In this document: positions 4,038 to 17,945 of the stretch, one piece after another
How the letters are laid out: every line of letters starts with the position of its first letter
Position numbering within the stretch: the first letter of the stretch is position 1
Origin: a virus
Taxonomy: Duplodnaviria > Heunggongvirae > Uroviricota > Caudoviricetes
Strand: one strand, 5' to 3'
IMG/VR virus record: IMGVR_UViG_2565956633_000002
Length of the DNA stretch: 23,481 nucleotides
Position numbers and translations under genes: made by a program
Notes under the pieces: generated by a model
The model's input: the letters and a program-made list of their open reading frames with translations, nothing else
Told to the model about the DNA's origin: nothing
Database searches by the model: none

Positions 4038-4889
4038 ATGATAAATTATGTCTACGGCGAACAACTGTACCAGGAGTTCGTCAGCTTCAGGGATCTCTTT
4101 CTAAAAAAAGCTGTTGCACGCGCCCAACACGTTGATGCCGCCAGCGACGGTCGTCCTGTTCGCCCGGTTGTCGTTCTGCCGTTCAAAGAAACGGACAGCA
4201 TTCAGGCTGAAATTGATAAATGGACTTTAATGGCGCGGGAACTGGAACAGTACCCAGACCTCAATATCCCAAAGACTATTTTATATCCAGTGCCTAACAT
4301 CCTTCGCGGTGTGCGTAAGGTTACGACTTATCAGACAGAAGCTGTGAACAGCGTCAACATGACCGCTGGCCGCATTATTCATCTGATTGATAAGGACATT
4401 CGCATCCAGAAAAGCGCGGGGATCAATGAGCACAGTGCGAAATACATAGAGAACCTGGAAGCAACAAAAGAGCTAATGAAGCAGTACCCGGAGGATGAAA
4501 AATTCCGTATGCGTGTACACGGCTTTAGCGAAACAATGCTGCGCGTCCACTACATTTCCAGTAGCCCTAACTACAATGATGGTAAATCAGTTAGTTACCA
4601 TGTGCCGCTGTGTGGTGTGTTTATCTGCGATGAAACTCTCCGTGATGGAATCATCATCAACGGTGAATTCGAGAAAGCAAAATTTAGCCTTTATGACTCT
4701 ATAGAACCGATCATCTGCGACCGCTGGCCGCAGGCAAAAATATATCGCCTGGCAGATATTGAAAATGTAAAAAAACAAATTGCCATCACTCGCGAAGAGA
4801 AAAAGGTCAAATCAGCCGCATCAGTTACGCGCAGCCGTAACACTAAGAAGGGGCAGCCAGTAAACGACAACCCCGAAAGCGCGCAATAA
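4038..4889 (+). CDS. c1: C1 repressor of lysis (immC), 283 aa
   Basis: Translation MINYVYGEQLYQEFVSFRDLFLKKAVARAQHVDAASDGRPVRPVVVLPFKETDSIQAEIDKW... matches P1 C1 in sequence and length. Strong Shine-Dalgarno GGAGGAGG. Confidence 0.95.
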   Translation: MINYVYGEQLYQEFVSFRDLFLKKAVARAQHVDAASDGRPVRPVVVLPFKETDSIQAEIDKWTLMARELEQYPDLNIPKTILYPVPNILRGVRKVTTYQTEAVNSVNMTAGRIIHLIDKDIRIQKSAGINEHSAKYIENLEATKELMKQYPEDEKFRMRVHGFSETMLRVHYISSSPNYNDGKSVSYHVPLCGVFICDETLRDGIIINGEFEKAKFSLYDSIEPIICDRWPQAKIYRLADIENVKKQIAITREEKKVKSAASVTRSRNTKKGQPVNDNPESAQ

Positions 4890-4892
4890 ATT

Positions 4893-4914
4893 ATGCCCGG
4901 CATCAACCGGGCAT
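4893..4914. terminator. bidirectional terminator-like hairpin between the convergent c1 and ant genes
   Basis: ATGCCCGG-CATCAA-CCGGGCAT, an 8-bp stem with A/T-rich flanks on both sides. Confidence 0.45.
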
Positions 4915-4921
4915 TCTTCCA

Positions 4922-6040
4922 TTATTCAGCTGCCACCGGTTTTAACAAGCCAGCATCGAGCAGTTTACGCGTCAACCACTGCTGGCCTTTACCCGTTAAT
5001 TGAGGCGTCAACCGTATCTGGTAGCCATCTTCATCATCCAGCACCACTTCTTTCACCGTGAAATACCCCGCGTTGATGTACTGCTGGAACGGCACATTTT
5101 TACGTCCACCGGACGCTATCAGGATGCCGTTCTCCCGTAACCAGACAAACAGCGCGTTTTGCTTAAGTCCAACAACCTTTGCAAAATTCCCAATCAGGAT
5201 CCCTTTAGCTACTGATACCCGGTCGGCAAAATCGACTTTAGGAGCGGCGGCCACCAGCTGCTGATTTAGCTGGTGGGCTTTCTGTTCCAGAAGTTGCTTT
5301 TGTTCAGCCAGTTCGGCAGCCAGGCGTAGGGCTTCAGGAAGCGTCTGGGGGATTGCGATCGGTTGCTGTTCTTTTTGTCGGAAGTAGCTGTCTTCCAGTT
5401 TTTCAAAGAATGCCCATGCCTGATCGGTTTCGAGCATTTTAGCGTGGCGGGCTGCGCCGCGTTCTGTCCAGAGGGTGAGTGAGCGAACATTGCGAGCAAT
5501 TTTTACAGAGTAGTTTAAAGCTACTCTGTGCTTCAACTCGCGCAATGATTCTCCTTCAACTTTGAAAAAGTGCTTCCCTTCAACAAAGCGTACTTTGTTC
5601 TCATGATGATTTTGGCGAATACGGATTGTTTCTGTCCCATACCCTCTAGCAAGAGTCTCGGTTGTCACTACACGCACTCCCTGCCATTCCAGAACGGGAA
5701 TTTCATCAGACTGATTCTGAACAACCACCAGCTCCGATTCCTGAACTGAAGGTGCATGAATTTTTTCTGATTTAACGTTAGTTGCTTTCATTCTGTGTGC
5801 CTCCTTGCGTGCTTCGGCTGCGACGGTTGCGTAATTCAGATGACCCTGTTCGAGCAGGTATTCGCGAATATCAGACAGCAGGATACGGTGAACCGCGTTC
5901 TTGTCCTTTCTCCGGTAAAGTTGTTTAGTGATCATGAAGTAGTTGGCTATAACACTGGGAATATCCCTGGTGCTGATACAGGCAGTGTGCTGTTCAATTG
6001 CCTCGATCATCTCTTCACGGGTGACTAATGACGTTCTCAT
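4922..6040 (-). CDS. ant: antirepressor Ant1 (372 aa) with in-frame internal start for Ant2 (ATG at 5790, 289 aa); ORF6N/Bro-N-like and KilA-C-like regions
   Basis: 372-codon ORF translationally coupled to the upstream 73-codon ORF (ATGA overlap at 6037-6040). A perfect internal Shine-Dalgarno AAGGAGG sits 8 nt before Met84. The predicted 41 kDa and 32 kDa products fit P1 Ant1/Ant2. The C-terminal region looks like a KilA-C antirepressor domain. Confidence 0.7.
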   Translation of the reverse strand: MRTSLVTREEMIEAIEQHTACISTRDIPSVIANYFMITKQLYRRKDKNAVHRILLSDIREYLLEQGHLNYATVAAEARKEAHRMKATNVKSEKIHAPSVQESELVVVQNQSDEIPVLEWQGVRVVTTETLARGYGTETIRIRQNHHENKVRFVEGKHFFKVEGESLRELKHRVALNYSVKIARNVRSLTLWTERGAARHAKMLETDQAWAFFEKLEDSYFRQKEQQPIAIPQTLPEALRLAAELAEQKQLLEQKAHQLNQQLVAAAPKVDFADRVSVAKGILIGNFAKVVGLKQNALFVWLRENGILIASGGRKNVPFQQYINAGYFTVKEVVLDDEDGYQIRLTPQLTGKGQQWLTRKLLDAGLLKPVAAE

Positions 6041-6258
6041 AGCCCCTCCTGAACAGAAGCGTTAACAGGGAGGCACCAGTAACTGAGAGAATTGCGTGAA
6101 TCAGTGGAAAAACGGGCAGAGAAAATACATGGGGCGTCAGGAAGCTGAGAGCGGGCCTCATCTTCTGTTGGTGCAATAACGAAGTGATAGTGACGTTTTT
6201 GGCAGGAGTAAAAGCGCCAGATAAATTCAGGATGAGTTGGGGTAGGGATAGTAGCCAT
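6037..6258 (-). CDS. icd: Icd-like protein, 73 aa, translationally coupled to ant
   Basis: ATG at 6258 is preceded by Shine-Dalgarno AAGGAGG then a 7-nt spacer. Product is MATIPTPTHPEFIWRFYSCQKRHYHFVIAPTEDEARSQLP... The 73-aa size and the icd-ant coupling mirror P1 immI. I do not remember the P1 Icd sequence, so the identity is structural only. Confidence 0.55.
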   Translation of the reverse strand: MATIPTPTHPEFIWRFYSCQKRHYHFVIAPTEDEARSQLPDAPCIFSARFSTDSRNSLSYWCLPVNASVQEGL

Positions 6259-6423
6259 ATTGGCAGCCTCCTTAGACGTTGGTATGTAACCACCGCAGAA
6301 GAGACCAATCTTGCTGGCGGTGGACTGTACGGAGTTGGCCTTACTGGCGTCCAAGGTAACCAGCCTACCCGAAGGTAGCCCCATACAGCCCACCATTGTA
6401 GAGGTGTGCGTGTACGCCGATAC

Positions 6424-6447
6424 AAAAAAAAGACGCGAGCGGCGTCT
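6424..6447 (-). terminator. rho-independent terminator, minus strand
   Basis: Minus RNA reads AGACGC-CGCTC-GCGTCT followed by U8 (plus-strand A-run at 6424-6431). Confidence 0.55.
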
Positions 6448-6570
6448 GTATCGCCTTAGACTTAAGCGGGAGGCCAATCCCGGCACCCGTTTTAATGAGG
6501 TGCCTGATAAGCATAAACCGAAAATGCCTCAAGGCGCAAGAGGTCAGGTTCAATGTAACATCGGTAGCTA
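6448..6570 (-). ncRNA. candidate c4-like antisense regulatory RNA (boundaries approximate)
   Basis: This is the transcribed region between a C1-operator promoter and the terminator. It contains AUUGGCCUCC, which is complementary to the icd ribosome-binding site GGAGGCUGCCAAU, and a GUCUAAGG copy also present at that site. The arrangement follows the P1 c4-icd-ant paradigm. Confidence 0.3.
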
Positions 6571-6577
6571 AAAAACA

Positions 6578-6594
6578 CAATTTATTAGAGCAAA
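6578..6594 (-). promoter_or_regulatory. C1 operator (Op51-like) at the head of the immI-like module
   Basis: Minus strand reads TTTGCTCTAATAAATTG, 15/17 to consensus. Confidence 0.65.
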
Positions 6595-6597
6595 TGT

Positions 6598-8082
6598 TCA
6601 TTCATTAAGCCATGCCAGAGCTTCATCAACCTGCGCTTCGTCTTCGACGCTAAGCACTTCATCCTGGGGAACATAATCCGCCAGCATAGCGAAACAATAT
6701 GTATCCCAATGGTCTGGTGAGTGCAGGTTGAGTTTTTTCTTCATATCCTCCTTACTCATCACCTTCCATTGACCTGCGGAGTTAATCCCTACAGGGATTT
6801 TCGACGCTTCCTCAATAGTTTCATTACCCTTATCCAGTCTCATACGACCAGATTTTACGGCCTCTGCGGCTTGAACGTTGGCATAAGCACGTTTATCAAA
6901 GTACAGGCTCTTATCTTCACGGCTATGCATCTTTTTACCCCAGCGTATACGCTGTACGGTAATACCATAATACTCGTACATCAGATCCGCTGTTGCTTTA
7001 CCCAGGCCATCGCCATCTATCGCTATGGTGATATTGGGGAATCGCTCAGGATTACATTCTGCGAAAATTTTGGCGGCAAGCTGCGTTTCTGTAACGTCTG
7101 TGTATTCCAGCATTCGATAGTTGATTACACGGCGTTTATTTCGCTGGCCGGACACCATCATGATATTGATAACTGACTTATCCCGTCCCGTACCACCAGC
7201 AACGTCCACACATGCAAGCCAGCCCCATCCTTTGGCAATCTTAACTTTCCGCCGCGTTGCACGTTCAACCTCATCACGTCCAAGAAGGAAGCCGTCCTGT
7301 GATTTAGGGAATAGGCCGCGCACCTTAATCATGTACATAGGGTTATCACGCCCGCCGTACTCCGCCAGCTTCATTTTGATAAATTCTGGCGTTACCAGCG
7401 GTGATTCCTCACTGTTAAGCGTGATCGCCGTATAAACGCCATCTGGGTTACCAGGACGCTTGGCCAGTTTATGGTGAGTATCGTAGAAATAGCCGCTTGG
7501 GCGTGTAGGCTGTGACAGTAATAAGATGCGGTTATCCTGTCCGGTAAGAGCACCGGTGATGATACCGAAAGCTCTATCACTGACACCGGAGGCTTCATCG
7601 ATAATATACAGAAGATGATCTGCGTGTTCACCGGCGAGAGCTTCTTCACTTCCCAGACGAAAGCCCTTCGGTACTACAGTCCATACACCTTTACCAGTAA
7701 CCTCATAGAAAGCGGTTTCTGTCAGAACAAAATAATCAGCAAGCCATGGAAAACGGCTGGTGGCAGTAGCCCAGTTTATCTTGATGTACTTGAATATACC
7801 GGTCATTACCTGCTGAATTTTGTTCGCAACGATAATGGCACGGGCACCTGGATACATGATTATGAACAACATGATCATGATAGAAGTCATGTCTGATTTC
7901 CCGGTACCGTGACCAGACGAAACAGATGTCTTGCTACCCTGTTCCTGCACAGACTCAATAATCAGATCCTGCTGCCAGGTAGGTGTTTTGCCGAACAAAA
8001 CATCAGCGGCAGCAATCCAGTCATAACGATATAGCGCCACCAGCTCGCGCCAACGTGGATCCGTTACGCAACTTCTGGCCAT
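6598..8082 (-). CDS. pacB: PacB, pacase / terminase large subunit, 494 aa
   Basis: Terminase-type ATPase with Walker A GHGTGKS and a C-terminal nuclease region. The 494-aa length and the one-base overlap with the upstream gene (TAATG) match P1 pacB. Confidence 0.9.
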
Positions 8083-9275
8083 TAATCATCATCCCCGTAT
8101 AGCTTGCGGGTAACTTCTTCGTCTTCCTCCTCGTCTTCGTCCAGGTCTTGTTCCAGCCATGGGTCGTTTGATACACCTTCAGTATCAACATCTCCATAAC
8201 CGCCTGTATCAACGATATCGGCGATTTCTTCCCTACGCTGCTCAATCCACAATGCGGCATCGGCGCGGCGGTTGGCGGCCCGTTCTCGCGCAACTTTGTC
8301 CAGATCTTCAAGAGAAGGGCCACCGACGGCTGTTTGCCTTTCCTCATCATCGGTATTGGTCTTAGGAGCACGCAGATCGGCTTTGATTTGCTCCAGCATC
8401 AGGGGCGGTACTTTCCCTCCATGCGCCTCGATGAATTCAGCTGCCTCCAGCACTGACCAGTTGTTTTCACGCTTTCGTTCGTATGCCAGCTTAACAATGC
8501 CAGCTTGCCCCATAGACAAAGCGTGCTTTTCCGCCTCCCGGCTTTCTTTTCGATAGTTATTCCGGATGCTGTAAATGGTGTTGATCAGGCTGCTTATCTG
8601 CGCGGAACAGCTGTTTAGCATGCTCGCGATACGGTATTCAGGCGGAGTTCCTTCATCATCGTCTTTTTGCTGATCGCGCATTTCCTGAACCAAGCGAATA
8701 CACGTATCCCTGGCGTTCTCCAGCATAAGGAGATGAGAGAGAGACTTTTCCAGAAGAGTGGTTTCCAGAACATCAGCCCCGGACCGACGCAACATAGCGC
8801 GCGCGGCCTTCCGCGCTTCAACGTTATCTATCAGGTAATCGCCAGCTTCGAATTCAAAGCGTTCACCATCATCATCCAGGGTGTCGCGTTCCAGGCGATC
8901 ACGTAAGGTCCGGTGGGCGCGGGTGATCACGTCATGATCATCAGAACGATCATTTATGCGCTTATTCTGGCGCTTCGCGTTCTCGACTGCGGCACTGACA
9001 ACAGCATTAACTCTTTGTTTTTCAGCCATTTCAGCCACAATGTGATCACCTGCACGTTGATCATTAGCGTGATCAATGATCATGCTTTTTAGTGGTTTTC
9101 TGACAGGCTTATTTGGCTTACGGCTGTCCGCTGTTCCGGTGTCTTCTTTGAATGCACGGAGATAACGACGTGCGGTGTTTGGGTTGAGATTAAACTCGGC
9201 GGCATATTGTGCGATGGTGTAACCACCATCTCGCGCCAGGCGAGCAAAATTCTTCTTGTGATCGTCCCAGGTCAC
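8082..9275 (-). CDS. pacA: PacA, pacase small subunit, 397 aa (GTG start)
   Basis: GTG start with Shine-Dalgarno AAGGAAG. The product has an N-terminal helix-turn-helix-like region and an acidic tail, and the pac site lies inside the ORF as in P1. Confidence 0.88.
8896..9083. other. pac packaging site: two clusters of TGATCA/GATC hexamers flanking the presumed cut region
   Basis: TGATCA at 9043, 9058, 9070 and 9078 on one side. On the other side, GATC-containing hexamers at 8896, 8924, 8935 and 8948. This is the known 4 + 3 Dam-site architecture of P1 pac. Confidence 0.65.
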
Positions 9276-9361
9276 TTATGCTTCCTTTCGTATAAAACTC
9301 TTTTTGACGCGAGGGTAACGAAAGTCACATGTCAAAAGGCCCGGAACGGGCAAGCAATCAA

Positions 9362-9814
9362 TCAGATACGTGCGGATGTGGCATTACCGTAATGACGGTG
9401 CTGACGGACCACCTTATTGAAAAGTTGACGCGCCATCACCCAAGGCTGGTGCTCCCGGCGTTCCTTTTCGTCCTGCGTCATATAGAGTTCGTTCTGGAGT
9501 TTTTCATCAAACCGGCGCGGAGCGCGGCTGCGGCGAAAGAATTCAGGATTCAGAGAGTGGATCTGAAATCTACGTGGGCGTGTACTGTCATCAATCAAAA
9601 CAGACGAATACTTAGACACAGCGATAGCCTTTAAGCGCAGATAAACATCGCGCTTATCGACATCCAGATGCGGGTATTCCTTTTCAAGAATTGCTGCGAG
9701 TTCTTTCGCTGATAGAAGAGATTTAGTGCGGATCATGTAATCCGCAATCTCGTACGATGTTATTCGTGAGTGATTTATTTCCATGAAGTGGCGTCCCTGC
9801 CAGTTAAGTAACAT
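9362..9814 (-). CDS. hypothetical protein, 150 aa, in the position of lpa (late promoter activator) upstream of pacA
   Basis: ATG at 9814 with Shine-Dalgarno AGGTGA, and tandem C1 operators immediately upstream. The protein is not recognised; the assignment is positional only. Confidence 0.5.
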   Translation of the reverse strand: MLLNWQGRHFMEINHSRITSYEIADYMIRTKSLLSAKELAAILEKEYPHLDVDKRDVYLRLKAIAVSKYSSVLIDDSTRPRRFQIHSLNPEFFRRSRAPRRFDEKLQNELYMTQDEKERREHQPWVMARQLFNKVVRQHRHYGNATSARI

Positions 9815-9871
9815 CCTGTCACCTACTGATTAGCCCATGTCAACTAATCAACGTGGAATATAATACCCTCG

Positions 9872-11157: not shown

Positions 11158-11538
11158 CTACTCCGCAGAACCATACAATCTACGTAACGTGTCGGCGACA
11201 GAAGATACAGATATCTCGCCAGTCGCAGCGCCTACAGTAAGGTCTGCCAGTTCAGGTGAATCAAATACCTGCACCCCGTTACGGCGTAGAAATAACAGCG
11301 CACTGTTTAGCGCGGTACGCTTATTGGCATCATTGAATATATGCCCTCTCGCTGTAGCCACCAGGTAGGTGGCGGAGACTTCGAAAAGGTCGGTGATCTC
11401 TTCGTAGGCAACTCTGGCCTGAACTCTCCCGATAATGGCCTCTGCCCTACCCGGATCTGACATTCCCGGCAGGCCGCCGTAGCGGTTTATATTCGCATCA
11501 TGAAGCGCAATAAGTTCTTCCGGTGATATATGCCTCAT
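11158..11538 (-). CDS. doc: Doc toxin (Fic/Doc family), 126 aa
   Basis: Translation [75 protein letters not shown]... is essentially P1 Doc. Confidence 0.95.
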
Positions 11539-11759
11539 TATCGGTTAACCAGTTCCTTGTTGGTGGAGTCCAGGGTGTCAAACAGGGATGCAAATTCAGC
11601 ATCCAGCGCCGCTTTTTTGTAGGCTTCGAAAGTAGCCTTGCTGACAATTACTGCTGGCTCACGGCCTCTGCGGGTGATTTCAACCTCTTCCCCGGCCTCA
11701 ACATTGTTGAGCACTTCAGAAAGTTTGCCGCGCGCGGTACGGAAGTTAATGGATTGCAT
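11538..11759 (-). CDS. phd: Phd antitoxin, 73 aa
   Basis: Translation [73 protein letters not shown] is P1 Phd. Its stop overlaps the doc start (TAATG). Confidence 0.95.
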
Positions 11760-11935: not shown

Positions 11936-13498
11936 ATGAAAATGACAAGTATTCAACAACGTGCAGAGCTTCATCGTCAAATCTGGCAAATTGCTAACGA
12001 TGTCAGGGGTTCGGTCGATGGATGGGATTTTAAGCAATACGTTCTGGGCGCACTTTTCTACCGTTTTATCAGCGAAAATTTTTCCAGCTATATTGAAGCC
12101 GGTGATGACAGCATCTGTTATGCGAAACTGGATGACAGCGTAATTACTGATGACATTAAAGACGATGCCATCAAAACCAAAGGCTACTTCATCTACCCAA
12201 GTCAGCTTTTCTGCAACGTAGCTGCGAAAGCAAATACCAATGACAGACTGAACGCAGATTTAAACAGCATCTTCGTTGCTATCGAAAGCTCTGCTTACGG
12301 TTACCCTTCAGAAGCTGACATCAAAGGTTTGTTTGCTGATTTCGATACCACCAGTAACCGCCTGGGTAACACCGTTAAAGATAAAAATGCCCGCCTGGCT
12401 GCGGTTCTGAAAGGGGTTGAAGGGTTAAAACTTGGTGACTTCAACGAACATCAGATTGACCTGTTCGGTGATGCCTATGAGTTCCTGATTTCTAACTATG
12501 CGGCAAATGCCGGTAAGTCAGGCGGTGAGTTCTTTACACCGCAGCACGTCTCTAAGCTGATTGCACAACTGGCAATGCACGGCCAGACCCACGTTAACAA
12601 AATCTACGACCCGGCAGCAGGTTCCGGTTCGCTGTTGTTGCAGGCTAAAAAACAGTTTGATGACCATATCATCGAAGAAGGCTTTTTTGGTCAGGAGATC
12701 AACCATACGACCTATAACCTGGCGCGTATGAACATGTTTTTGCACAACATCAACTACGACAAGTTTGATATCAAGCTGGGTAATACACTGACTGAGCCGC
12801 ACTTCAGAGATGAAAAACCGTTTGATGCCATCGTTTCTAACCCGCCGTATTCGGTGAAATGGATTGGCAGCGATGACCCGACGCTGATTAACGATGAACG
12901 TTTTGCCCCGGCTGGCGTTCTGGCCCCCAAATCCAAAGCTGACTTTGCGTTTGTATTACATGCGCTGAACTATCTTTCTGCCAAAGGTCGTGCTGCGATT
13001 GTCTGCTTCCCGGGCATTTTTTACCGTGGCGGCGCGGAGCAGAAAATCCGTCAGTATCTGGTTGACAATAACTATGTCGAAACCGTGATTTCACTGGCAC
13101 CGAACCTGTTCTTTGGCACCACCATTGCCGTAAATATTCTGGTGCTGTCTAAACATAAAACGGATACCAAAGTTCAGTTTATTGACGCCAGCGAACTGTT
13201 CAAAAAAGAGACTAACAACAACATCCTGACCGATGCCCATATCGAAAAAATTATGCAGGTATTTTCCAGCAAGGAAGATGTTGCCCATCTGGCAAAATCT
13301 GTCGCGTTTGAGGCCGTTGTCGCGAATGACTATAACCTGTCAGTGAGCAGCTATGTAGAAGTGAAAGATAACCGCGAAACTATCGATATTGCTGAGCTAA
13401 ATGCTGAGCTGAAAACCACGGTCAGCAAAATCGACCAGTTGCGTAAAGATATTGATGCGATTGTGGCTGAAATTGAAGGCTGCGAGGTGCAGAAATGA
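11936..13498 (+). CDS. hsdM: Type I restriction-modification methyltransferase subunit HsdM, Type IC (EcoR124 family), 520 aa
   Basis: N6-adenine methyltransferase motifs are present: [10 protein letters not shown] (AdoMet binding) and VSNPPYS (motif IV). The 520-aa length and N-terminus [25 protein letters not shown] fit EcoR124-type HsdM. Confidence 0.93.
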
Positions 13499-14706
13499 GC
13501 GAGTTGAGTTATCTGGAAAAATTGCTGGATGGGGTTGAAGTTGAGTGGTTGCCATTGGGGGAAATAACCAAATATGAACAGCCAACAAAGTATTTGGTAA
13601 AAGCAAAAGATTATCACGACACATATACCATACCGGTTCTTACTGCCGGAAAAACATTTATTCTTGGATACACAAATGAGACTCATGGTATTTATCAGGC
13701 ATCAAAGGCACCTGTAATAATTTTTGATGATTTCACCACCGCTAATAAATGGGTGGATTTTGACTTTAAGGCAAAATCATCGGCCATGAAAATGGTTACA
13801 TCATGTGATGATAATAAAACCTTACTGAAATATGTTTACTATTGGCTCAATACATTACCAAGTGAATTCGCAGAGGGAGACCATAAACGCCAATGGATTA
13901 GTAATTATTCTCAAAAAAAAATCCCAATCCCCTGCCCGGATAATCCGGAAAAATCCCTTGCCATCCAGTCTGAAATCGTTCGGATTCTGGATAAATTTAC
14001 TGCACTTACCGCTGAGCTTACCGCTGAGCTTAACATGCGTAAAAAACAGTACAACTATTATCGCGACCAGTTGTTGAGTTTTAAAGAGGGTGAGGTTGAG
14101 TGGAAGACTTTGGAGGAGGTGCTAGTAGATAAATTTTGGATTATGCCCGCAACTCCGAAGTTTGATGACAATGGTGAAATTCCATATGTCACTTCAAAGA
14201 ATATTAGTGGTGGGAACATCGATTTTGAAAGAGTTAAGCATATTTCCCGGGACGATTTTTTGAGCATCTCCAAAAATAGACCGATCTTGAAAGGTGACTT
14301 TCTTATAAGCATGATTGGTACTATTGGTGAGATTGCTCGAGTAAAATGTCTCGATCCTGATTTTTACGGTCAAAACATGTACCTAATCAGGTTGAATGAG
14401 GAATTACTTCACCCTAGATATTTTCTGCATTTCTTCGACTCACCAAGAATGAAATTTTACTTTAAGTCAGTAAAAAACAATTCAGGGCAAGGTTATCTTA
14501 AAGCAAATAACATTGATGGTTTATCTATTCCTTTACCATCGATTGATGAGCAACAAAAAATTGCCTTTATCCTCGATAAGTTCGACACCCTGACCAACTC
14601 CATCACCGAAGGTCTCCCGCGTGAAATCGAGTTGCGCCAGAAACAATACGAGTACTACCGTGATTTACTGTTCAGTTTCCCGAAACCTGAAACTGTCAGT
14701 AATTAA
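13495..14706 (+). CDS. hsdS: Type I specificity subunit HsdS, Type IC, 403 aa, two target-recognition domains
   Basis: ATGA overlap with hsdM. The central conserved region carries the TAEL-TAEL repeat typical of Type IC HsdS, and there are duplicated conserved motifs (QKQYEYYRD / KKQYNYYRD). Confidence 0.9.
14005..14028 (+). repeat. tandem 12-bp repeat (CTTACCGCTGAG x2) encoding TAEL-TAEL in the hsdS central region
   Basis: Exact tandem duplication read directly from the sequence. In the EcoR124I / EcoR124II paradigm, two versus three copies of this repeat change the spacer length of the recognition site. Confidence 0.85.
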
Positions 14707-14828
14707 TTGACCATTGCTACCGACCGGGCCACCTTAACACCCGGTCAGTATATAGGCTATTTTTTTACACGCTGGAAGTCACCATTAACACCCTTCCGGC
14801 CCTTGCCAGACGGCACAAAGGATGCGCT

Positions 14829-17800
14829 ATGACTCATCAGACACACACCATTGCTGAATCCAATAACTTTATCGTTCTTGATAAGTACATCAAAGCTGAG
14901 CAAACAGGCGACAGCTATCAGAGTGAATCGGACCTGGAACGGGAACTGATTCAGGACCTGCGAAATCAGGGCTATGAATTTATACCCGTAAAATCACAGT
15001 CGGCGATGCTGGCCAACGTTCGGGAACAGCTTCAGAACCTCAATGGTGTGGTGTTTAATGACAGCGAATGGCGGCGTTTCACGGAGCAGTATCTGGACAA
15101 CCCGAGTGATGGCATTCTGGATAAGACCCGTAAAATCCATATCGACTATATTTGCGACTTTATTTTTGATGACGAGCGTCTTGAGAACATCTATTTGATA
15201 GATAAAAAGAATCTCATGCGCAATAAGGTGCAGATTATCCAGCAGTTTGAACAGACGGGTTCTCATGCTAACCGTTATGACGTCACGATCCTGGTTAATG
15301 GTTTACCGCTGGTGCAAATCGAACTAAAAAAACGCGGGGTGGCGATTCGTGAGGCTTTCAACCAGATACATCGTTACAGTAAAGAGAGTTTTAACAGCGA
15401 AAATTCCCTGTTTAAGTATCTGCAACTGTTTGTCATTTCTAACGGCACCGATACCCGTTATTTTGCCAACACGACAAAGCGCGATAAAAACAGTTTTGAC
15501 TTCACCATGAATTGGGCGAAATCAGACAACACGCTGATTAAAGACCTCAAAGACTTTACCGCTACCTTTTTCCAGAAACATACTCTGCTGAATGTTCTGG
15601 TGAACTACAGCGTTTTTGACAGTAGTCAGACGCTACTGGTGATGCGACCGTACCAGATTGCCGCCACCGAACGAATCTTATGGAAAATCAACAGCTCCTA
15701 TAAAGCGAAAAACTGGTCTAATCCCGAAAGCGGTGGCTTTATCTGGCACACTACCGGTTCTGGTAAAACACTGACCAGCTTTAAAGCCGCGCGTCTGGCA
15801 ACAGAACTGGACTTTATTGATAAAGTCTTCTTCGTGGTCGACAGGAAAGACCTCGATTACCAGACCATGAAGGAATACCAGCGTTTTTCGCCAGACAGCG
15901 TCAACGGCTCGGAAAATACCGCAGGTCTTAAACGAAATCTGGATAAGGACGATAACAAAATTATCGTCACCACTATTCAGAAACTTAATAACCTGATGAA
16001 AGCAGAAAGCGACCTGCCTGTATACAATCAGCAAGTGGTGTTTATATTTGATGAATGCCACCGCAGCCAGTTTGGAGAAGCGCAGAAAAACCTGAAGAAG
16101 AAATTCAAACGCTATTATCAGTTTGGTTTTACCGGCACACCTATTTTCCCGGAAAACGCTTTAGGCTCAGAAACGACCGCCAGCGTATTTGGCCGTGAAT
16201 TGCATTCGTATGTGATTACCGATGCGATTCGAGATGAAAAAGTGCTTAAATTCAAGGTGGACTACAACGATGTGCGGCCACAGTTTAAGTCTTTAGAGAC
16301 AGAAACCGACGAGAAAAAACTGAGTGCGGCTGAAAATCAGCAGGCGTTTCTTCATCCCATGCGTATACAGGAAATTACGCAATATATTCTGAATAACTTC
16401 CGCCAGAAGACCCACCGTACTTTCCCAGGTTCCAAAGGCTTTAATGCCATGCTGGCAGTGAGTAGCGTGGATGCCGCGAAAGCCTATTACGCGACGTTTA
16501 AACGGTTACAAGAGGAAGCAGCTAATAAATCGGCTACCTATAAACCGCTGCGTGTTGCGACAATCTTCTCCTTTGCCGCCAATGAAGAACAAAATGCCAT
16601 TGGTGAAATTTCCGATGAAACTTTTGATACCAGCGCAATGGACAGCAGTGCTAAAGAGTTTCTGGACGCTGCAATTCGTGAATATAACAGCCATTTTAAA
16701 ACTAACTTTAGCACCGACAGTAACGGTTTTCAGAACTACTATCGTGATTTAGCCCAGCGGGTTAAAAATCAGGATATCGATCTGCTAATTGTCGTGGGGA
16801 TGTTTTTAACCGGCTTCGATGCTCCAACATTGAACACGCTATTCGTCGATAAAAACTTGCGTTTTCACGGCCTGATGCAGGCATTTTCCCGCACCAACCG
16901 TATTTATGATGCAACTAAAACCTTCGGTAATATCGTCACTTTCCGGGATCTGGAACGCTCAACTATTGATGCCATAACGCTGTTTGGTGACAAAAACACC
17001 AAAAATGTGGTGTTAGAAAAGAGTTATACAGAGTATATGGAAGGCTTTACTGATGCTGCTACAGGTGAAGCTAAACGCGGCTTCATGACAGTAGTTTCAG
17101 AACTGGAACAACGGTTCCCTGACCCTGCCAGTATTGAAAGTGAAAAAGAGAAGAAAGACTTCGTTAAACTGTTTGGCGAATACCTGCGTGCCGAGAACAT
17201 CCTGCAAAACTATGATGAATTTGCCACGCTAAAAGCCCTGCAACAAATCGATCTTAGCGATCCTGTTGCGGTAGAAAAATTCAAAGCAGAACATTATGTG
17301 GATGATGAAAAGTTCGCTGAATTGCAAACAATTCGTCTCCCTGCTGATCGCAAGATTCAGGATTATCGTTCTGCCTATAACGATATTCGCGACTGGCAGC
17401 GCCGTGAGAAAGAAGCTGAGAAAAAAGAGAAATCAACCACTGACTGGGATGACGTAGTTTTTGAGGTCGATTTGCTGAAGTCTCAGGAAATAAACCTGGA
17501 TTATATCCTTGGACTGATTTTCGAACACAACAGACAAAATAAAGGCAAGGGCGAAATGATCGAAGAGGTCAAACGCTTAATTCGTTCAAGCCTGGGGAAC
17601 CGAGCGAAAGAGGGCCTGGTGGTCGATTTTATTCAGCAAACGAACCTGGATGATTTACCAGATAAAGCCAGTATCATTGAGGCATTCTTTACGTTTGCTC
17701 AACGCGAACAGCAACGTGAAGCAGAAGCATTGATAAAAGAAGAAAATCTCAATGAAGAAGCAGCAAAACGCTATATTCGCACGTCTTTAAAACGCGAATA

Positions 17801-17945
17801 CGCCACCGAAAATGGCACAGAATTAAACGAAACATTACCAAAACTTAGTCCATTGAATCCGCAATATAAAACGAAAAAACAGGCAGTTTTCCAGAAAATC
17901 GTCTCGTTTATTGAGAAGTTTAAAGGCGTAGGCGGAAAAATATAG
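14829..17945 (+). CDS. hsdR: Type I restriction endonuclease subunit HsdR, Type IC, 1038 aa
   Basis: Superfamily 2 helicase motifs are present (Walker A TGSGKT, DEAH-box FDECHRSQ). The 1038-aa length matches EcoR124I HsdR as I recall it. Shine-Dalgarno AAGGA. Confidence 0.93.

Follow-up and report, generated by a model that had tools for sequence, protein, structure and literature searches.

The TAEL spacer repeat of a Type IC specificity gene carried by a P1-like phage-plasmid

The hsdMSR operon and its carrier

The DNA analysed here, a stretch of 23,481 nucleotides referred to as the window, belongs to a P1-like phage-plasmid. Besides the genes listed in Table 1 it encodes a DUF968 protein, and a Type IC restriction-modification operon directly adjoins phd, at the site of humD in P1 and P7. 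The same placement of hsdMSR by phd was found in phages vB_EcoM-673R5 and phi456, and the insertion is also present in many E. coli plasmids of ~90-120 kb, with different hsdS alleles. No relevant account of Type I systems on phage-plasmids of the P1 kind turned up in the literature searched.

Table 1. Coordinates of the phage-plasmid genes, the hsdMSR operon and the parts of hsdS in the window.
Feature	Position	Strand	Evidence or match
Cre-like integrase	1889-2920
c1	4038-4889
pacA/pacB	6598-9275
lpa	9362-9814
phd/doc	11158-11759
hsdMSR	11936-17945
hsdM, 520 aa	11936..13498	+	Pfam N6_Mtase and HsdM_N; match to EcoR124 HsdM (7bst_D), 1152 bits over 1-520
hsdS, 403 aa, Type IC specificity subunit	13495..14706	+	Pfam Methylase_S, two stretches
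N-terminal target-recognition domain (TRD1), aa 1-150	13495..13944	+	149/150 identical to the EcoR124I N-TRD
Central conserved region, aa 151-204, contains the repeat	13945..14106	+	54/54 identical to EcoR124I
12-bp tandem repeat CTTACCGCTGAG x2.3, L-TAEL-TAEL, HsdS central helix	14005..14032	+	Sequence, Tandem Repeats Finder, 7bst_A
C-terminal target-recognition domain (TRD2), aa 205-345	14107..14529	+	30/141 identical to EcoR124I
Distal conserved region, aa 346-403, second coiled-coil helix	14530..14703	+	52/58 identical to EcoR124I
hsdR, 1038 aa	14829..17945	+	Pfam HSDR_N, SWI2_SNF2 and EcoR124_C; match to EcoR124I HsdR (2w00_A), 2283 bits over 1-1038

Between c1 and pacB, a 372-aa ORF on the reverse strand (4922-6040) carries ORF6N and KilAC antirepressor (ANT) domains. 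Against its closest relatives, the loci L001 and L002, the window matched at 89% over 6596-9823 and had no match at 4889-6595; the stretch around this ORF looks like a swapped module. The first of these relatives is a P1-like element with the hsdS allele of the window, recorded inside the 'chromosome' of E. coli NCTC11129 (4593102-4622313). It adjoins priA, is flanked by copies of IS5, IS1, IS66 and IS30, and could be a phage-plasmid that has integrated or been rearranged, or else the product of an assembly join.

The three genes lie in the order hsdM-hsdS-hsdR, with an ATGA overlap between hsdM and hsdS and a gap of 122 bp before hsdR. HsdM and HsdR match the EcoR124 subunits at ~2.2 bits per residue, where an identical protein gives 2.3, and were placed in the EcoR124 exchange group, as judged by sequence only. 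HsdS has the layout of N-terminal TRD, central region, C-terminal TRD and distal conserved region, with the family-specific conserved regions present, and the hallmark of Type IC, a tandem tetra-amino-acid repeat in the central conserved region, is found as TAEL x2 in a perfect 12-bp tandem. A reading of the letters without database searches (the sequence-only reading) had assigned the repeat to a Type IC hsdS of the EcoR124 family, and the assignment is borne out by TRD1, the central region and the full-length HsdM and HsdR matches to EcoR124I. Relatedness of the target-recognition domains to those of EcoR124-type HsdS, on which that reading also depended, was found for TRD1 and not for TRD2. 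With a TRD1 and central region like those of EcoR124I and a divergent TRD2, the operon reads as a Type IC system with a GAA-reading domain, a spacer of two units and a second domain unlike that of EcoR124I; on its sequence, it is a new allele of an already known kind, the EcoR124 family.

The HsdS of the window is identical to the database protein P0001, seen on 158 contigs, and the RefSeq allele WP_023157127.1 is 99.9% identical to its gene in DNA. Its TRD2 recurs unchanged (141/141) on plasmid pKTa005_6, joined to another TRD1 and three TAEL copies. When hsdS was compared with the whole window by tblastn and blastn, only the gene itself was matched. With no further hsdS segment in the window, an inverting hsdS shufflon was rejected.

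Tandem Repeats Finder reported the tract as 2.3 copies of the 12-bp unit (period 12, 100% matches), the top tandem-repeat score in the window. From 14005 the letters run CTTACCGCTGAG CTTACCGCTGAG CTTA, followed by ACATG, so that the two perfect copies at 14005-14028 and the partial third unit at 14029-14032, both described from the letters before, were confirmed. A codon of the hsdS ORF begins at 14005, and the tract therefore encodes L171-TAEL-TAEL (aa 171-179), in which TAEL x2 occupies aa 172-179; the span 14005-14028 corresponds to the LTAE register of the two TAEL units. The window contains one perfect tandem of this 12-bp kind, whereas 200 mononucleotide-shuffled versions gave 0.0 on average. 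Of the 120 best protein relatives, 114 likewise have TAEL x2, and the EcoR124I HsdS (PDB 7bst_A) carries the identical tract, while the distal conserved region of the window HsdS is without DNA repeat.

Repeat number and spacing in the Type IC family

EcoR124I, with two TAEL units, recognizes GAA N6 RTCG and EcoR124II, with three, GAA N7 RTCG; EcoDXXI and EcoPrrI have three units as well, and in hybrid enzymes the gap shifts exactly as the repeat number predicts (PMC3874165, Loenen et al. 2014). The hybrid enzymes also served to assign the N-terminal TRD to GAA (Table 2 in PMC3874165). In natural strains of Neisseria gonorrhoeae, LEAT repeat variants of NgoAV correspond to GACN6TGC or GACN7TGC (PMC6789123). 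That two versus three TAEL copies distinguish EcoR124I from EcoR124II, as the sequence-only reading had it, is supported by this literature (PMC3874165), and given the rule established for EcoR124 and NgoAV the interpretation offered there is the textbook one.

The conserved motifs on either side of the tract were present in at least 586 species-representative genomes, and among the parsed loci the linker varied in length only in steps of four residues. Of the systems from other species whose integrity could be judged, 48 were intact, and all of these had either two units (30) or three (18). The evaluable loci with zero, one or five units were all defective (5/5), with hsdM, hsdS or hsdR deleted or frameshifted. 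Taken at face value, this division of intact and defective systems by unit count has a chance of 1 in C(53,5), ~3.5e-7, to be read with the limit that several of the defective loci are metagenome-assembled genomes, so that some of the defects could be assembly errors. Among the systems inspected for integrity, counts of 0, 1, 4, 5 and 8 were confined to decayed systems, with the exception of a one-copy variant of the window's own allele (P0016, see below).

Units 1 and 2 were identical in DNA in 38 of the 48 intact loci, where 100,000 permutations gave a maximum of 14, and yet 18 synonymous spellings of the unit occur between these loci. Such identity within genes despite divergence between them (concerted evolution) implies that lineages with functional systems have repeatedly lost and regained units; some of the identity is to be expected from shared codon bias.

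Turnover was also visible as pairs of natural alleles. Five HsdS pairs were found that are identical except for one TAEL unit. Apart from P0001 and P0016 these are P0034 and P0056, P0104 and P0115, P0024 (two copies) and the HsdS of pKTa005_6 (three copies), which differ by 0 mismatches and have the same TRD2 as the window, and a chromosomal pair, PG20180057 (two) and 04-00955 (three). In the latter pair all three genes are intact in both strains, and over 8.4 kb the two are set apart by a single substitution and by the 12-bp indel.

These observations bear on the possibility that the repeat is static, TAEL x2 being a conserved coiled coil that changes no specificity in the window's allele and whose length variants are dead ends. 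The almost invariant copy number of that allele would fit, as would the restriction of 0, 1 and at least 4 copies to decayed systems, bar the one-copy variant. Such a static element is nevertheless highly improbable, as two and three copies are both common in intact systems, intact 2/3-copy pairs occur on otherwise identical backbones, the identity of the units in spite of synonymous divergence between genes speaks for recurrent turnover in functional lineages, and going from two to three copies turns N6 into N7 experimentally (PMC3874165).

In three natural E. coli HsdS alleles of 407 aa (P0020, P0021 and P0023), both TRD positions were seen to be occupied by the GAA-type TRD1. They resemble the engineered symmetric EcoR124I-NT and are predicted to read a palindromic site of the GAA-N-TTC type.

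Copy number in the window's allele and in disrupted systems

The allele of the window occurs on 242 contigs as 16 nearly identical protein variants, every one with two units. P0016, on a single contig, has one unit and is otherwise identical to P0001; its DNA shows the DUF968-doc-phd-hsdMSR context of the window and matches it over 6.6 kb at 98.7% identity, the alignment being broken by one 12-bp gap. No three-unit version of this allele was found, against 242 contigs with two units and one with one. Since single units are otherwise found only in degraded systems, P0016 may be inactive rather than respecified. Natural allele pairs differing by one unit do exist; the description of the repeat as a 'built-in switch' overstated the frequency of change, as the number is nearly fixed in intact systems, with 242 two-copy contigs against one with one copy for this allele.

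Across complete E. coli genomes, the central region was found in 1273 of 5426, in 1364 records. Copy numbers were taken from match spans in the rows listed and in a spread sample of 60 records, in which about 31 had two units (~52%), 22 three (~38%) and two five. The identity bands of BLAST matches to synthetic three- and four-copy queries were unusable as counts, as gapped matches split, and a synthetic four-copy query of the central-region protein gave only short fragments, unusable for full-length copy counts.

Exactly four units were present in 10 E. coli records, and all eight inspected records with at least four copies were disrupted by insertion sequences (8/8). With eight copies, strain 33-6 has IS1 in hsdS. 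Five copies were found in NC101, with ISEc45 in hsdS, and in STB20-1, with IS2 in hsdM. The four-copy systems are those of the ETEC1701 plasmid (an IS3-family element in hsdS), of E89 and 2017.02.04CC (IS3, with hsdM lost) and of CUVET21-PYO5 (ISEc45). Strain 58-3 has the same eight-copy tract as 33-6, the strain for which the disruption was established. The tract of 33-6 (CP050031.1, 1576-1671) consists of eight perfect copies of the 12-bp unit, TAEL x8, the largest expansion seen, in an hsdS truncated at its 5' end by IS1.

One chromosomal allele disrupted by ISEc45 was represented by eight independent strains with identical 525-bp flanks, in which 2, 2, 3, 4, 4, 4, 5 and 5 units were counted. 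Its undisrupted version has three units in 10 of 11 genomes and two in the remaining one. Five loci of this allele, three disrupted and two intact, have 5, 4, 2, 2 and 3 units with 0 substitutions in the 2065 bp upstream. A range of two to five units next to unchanged flanks means that the tract mutates faster than point substitutions accumulate. This E. coli chromosomal Type IC locus adjoins a tRNA-Leu gene and, existing both intact and ISEc45-disrupted, offers a natural experiment, already in place, on how the repeat drifts once the gene has died. Most of the visible variation of the tract, however, lies in systems that are no longer alive.

Assembly artefact was rejected as the source of the copy variation. 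NC101 shows five copies in two independent assemblies, and the tract is shorter than the 31-mer used in the Logan assemblies.

The speed of change in this one lineage (5, 4, 2, 2 and 3 copies without a substitution in 2065 bp) and the homogenization of units within genes would suit a high-frequency contingency locus, in which clonal switching keeps mixed N5, N6 and N7 subpopulations as a form of bet-hedging by the phage-plasmid. The numbers in working systems point the other way. With 2.3 copies of a 12-mer the tract is short for slippage, the window's allele shows one variant against 242 two-copy contigs across isolates, the intact chromosomal allele keeps three copies in 10 of 11 genomes, and wide variation appears only after IS inactivation. 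A contingency locus of this kind is very unlikely.

The tract is mutable and constrained by selection, and very probably serves as a length ruler rather than as a rapid phase switch. Selection keeps live systems at two or three units, and changes of one unit are rare and surface occasionally. With the number so held, a change is very probably an occasional evolutionary event and not programmed phase variation. That the tract in the window is the canonical TAEL spacer found in Type IC HsdS proteins, mutable in length but kept at two or three units in this manner, is considered very probable.

Predicted specificity and meaning for the family

The proposed action of the repeat follows the EcoR124I framework. 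The tract sits in the first of two long helices that separate the two target-recognition domains, where each 12-bp unit would contribute about one extra helical turn and move the second half-site by 1 bp. Two units would place the two methylated adenines 7 nt apart, and the site would read, in order, GAA, a gap of the N6 type and the half-site recognized by the new TRD2. The units share one DNA sequence, which allows a unit to be gained or lost in frame by slippage or by unequal exchange, with N7 or N5 variants as the expected outcome; for the window's allele, we infer that a third unit would widen the gap by 1 bp. The natural intact pairs with a one-unit difference lend the proposed spacing role indirect support.

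The predicted recognition site is accordingly GAA-N6-like, with its second half set by the new TRD2. The N6 is a prediction, because the gap depends on the place of the methylated adenine in the TRD2 half-site. As TRD2 is unrelated to that of EcoR124I, only the GAA half-site and the spacing of the adenines can be predicted, and the second half-site would not be RTCG. The only solved relatives are uncharacterised or distant and point to no half-site for TRD2.

Compared with EcoR124I and EcoR124II of plasmid R124, the window shares the operon layout, the full-length HsdM and HsdR matches and the closely matching TRD1, central and distal regions, and its two TAEL units recur, in the same DNA spelling, in E. 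coli alleles of the EcoR124 family. It differs from them in its TRD2 and in its carrier, a P1-like phage-plasmid instead of R124. EcoDXXI and EcoPrrI likewise belong to the Type IC family and use the TAEL repeat as a spacer ruler, with three units where the window has two. The natural strain-to-strain variation of the tetrapeptide number in NgoAV parallels the 2/3-copy pairs found here, although NgoAV has a LEAT repeat, another host and other TRDs, and its specificity also depends on a downstream frameshift.

A farther-reaching reading would make the TAEL tract intrinsically hypermutable throughout enterobacterial Type IC systems and masked by purifying selection, counts outside two to three marking a dead system, with phage-plasmid alleles throwing off N5 and N7 variants at a measurable rate that occasionally sweep as new specificities. 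As a whole this is unlikely.

Since the finding re-identifies a textbook mechanism, it changes little. It does provide a prediction for an allele of a P1-like phage-plasmid, namely GAA, an adenine separation of 7 nt and a new half-site. The by-products, which are the intact natural 2/3-copy pairs, the homogenization of units at the DNA level and the occurrence of four to eight copies only in IS-disrupted systems, may help the annotation of R-M systems and the interpretation of methylomes. They suggest that the number of repeats can serve as a marker of inactive Type IC systems, and that nature already offers, in some strain pairs, an experiment on the N6/N7 rule.
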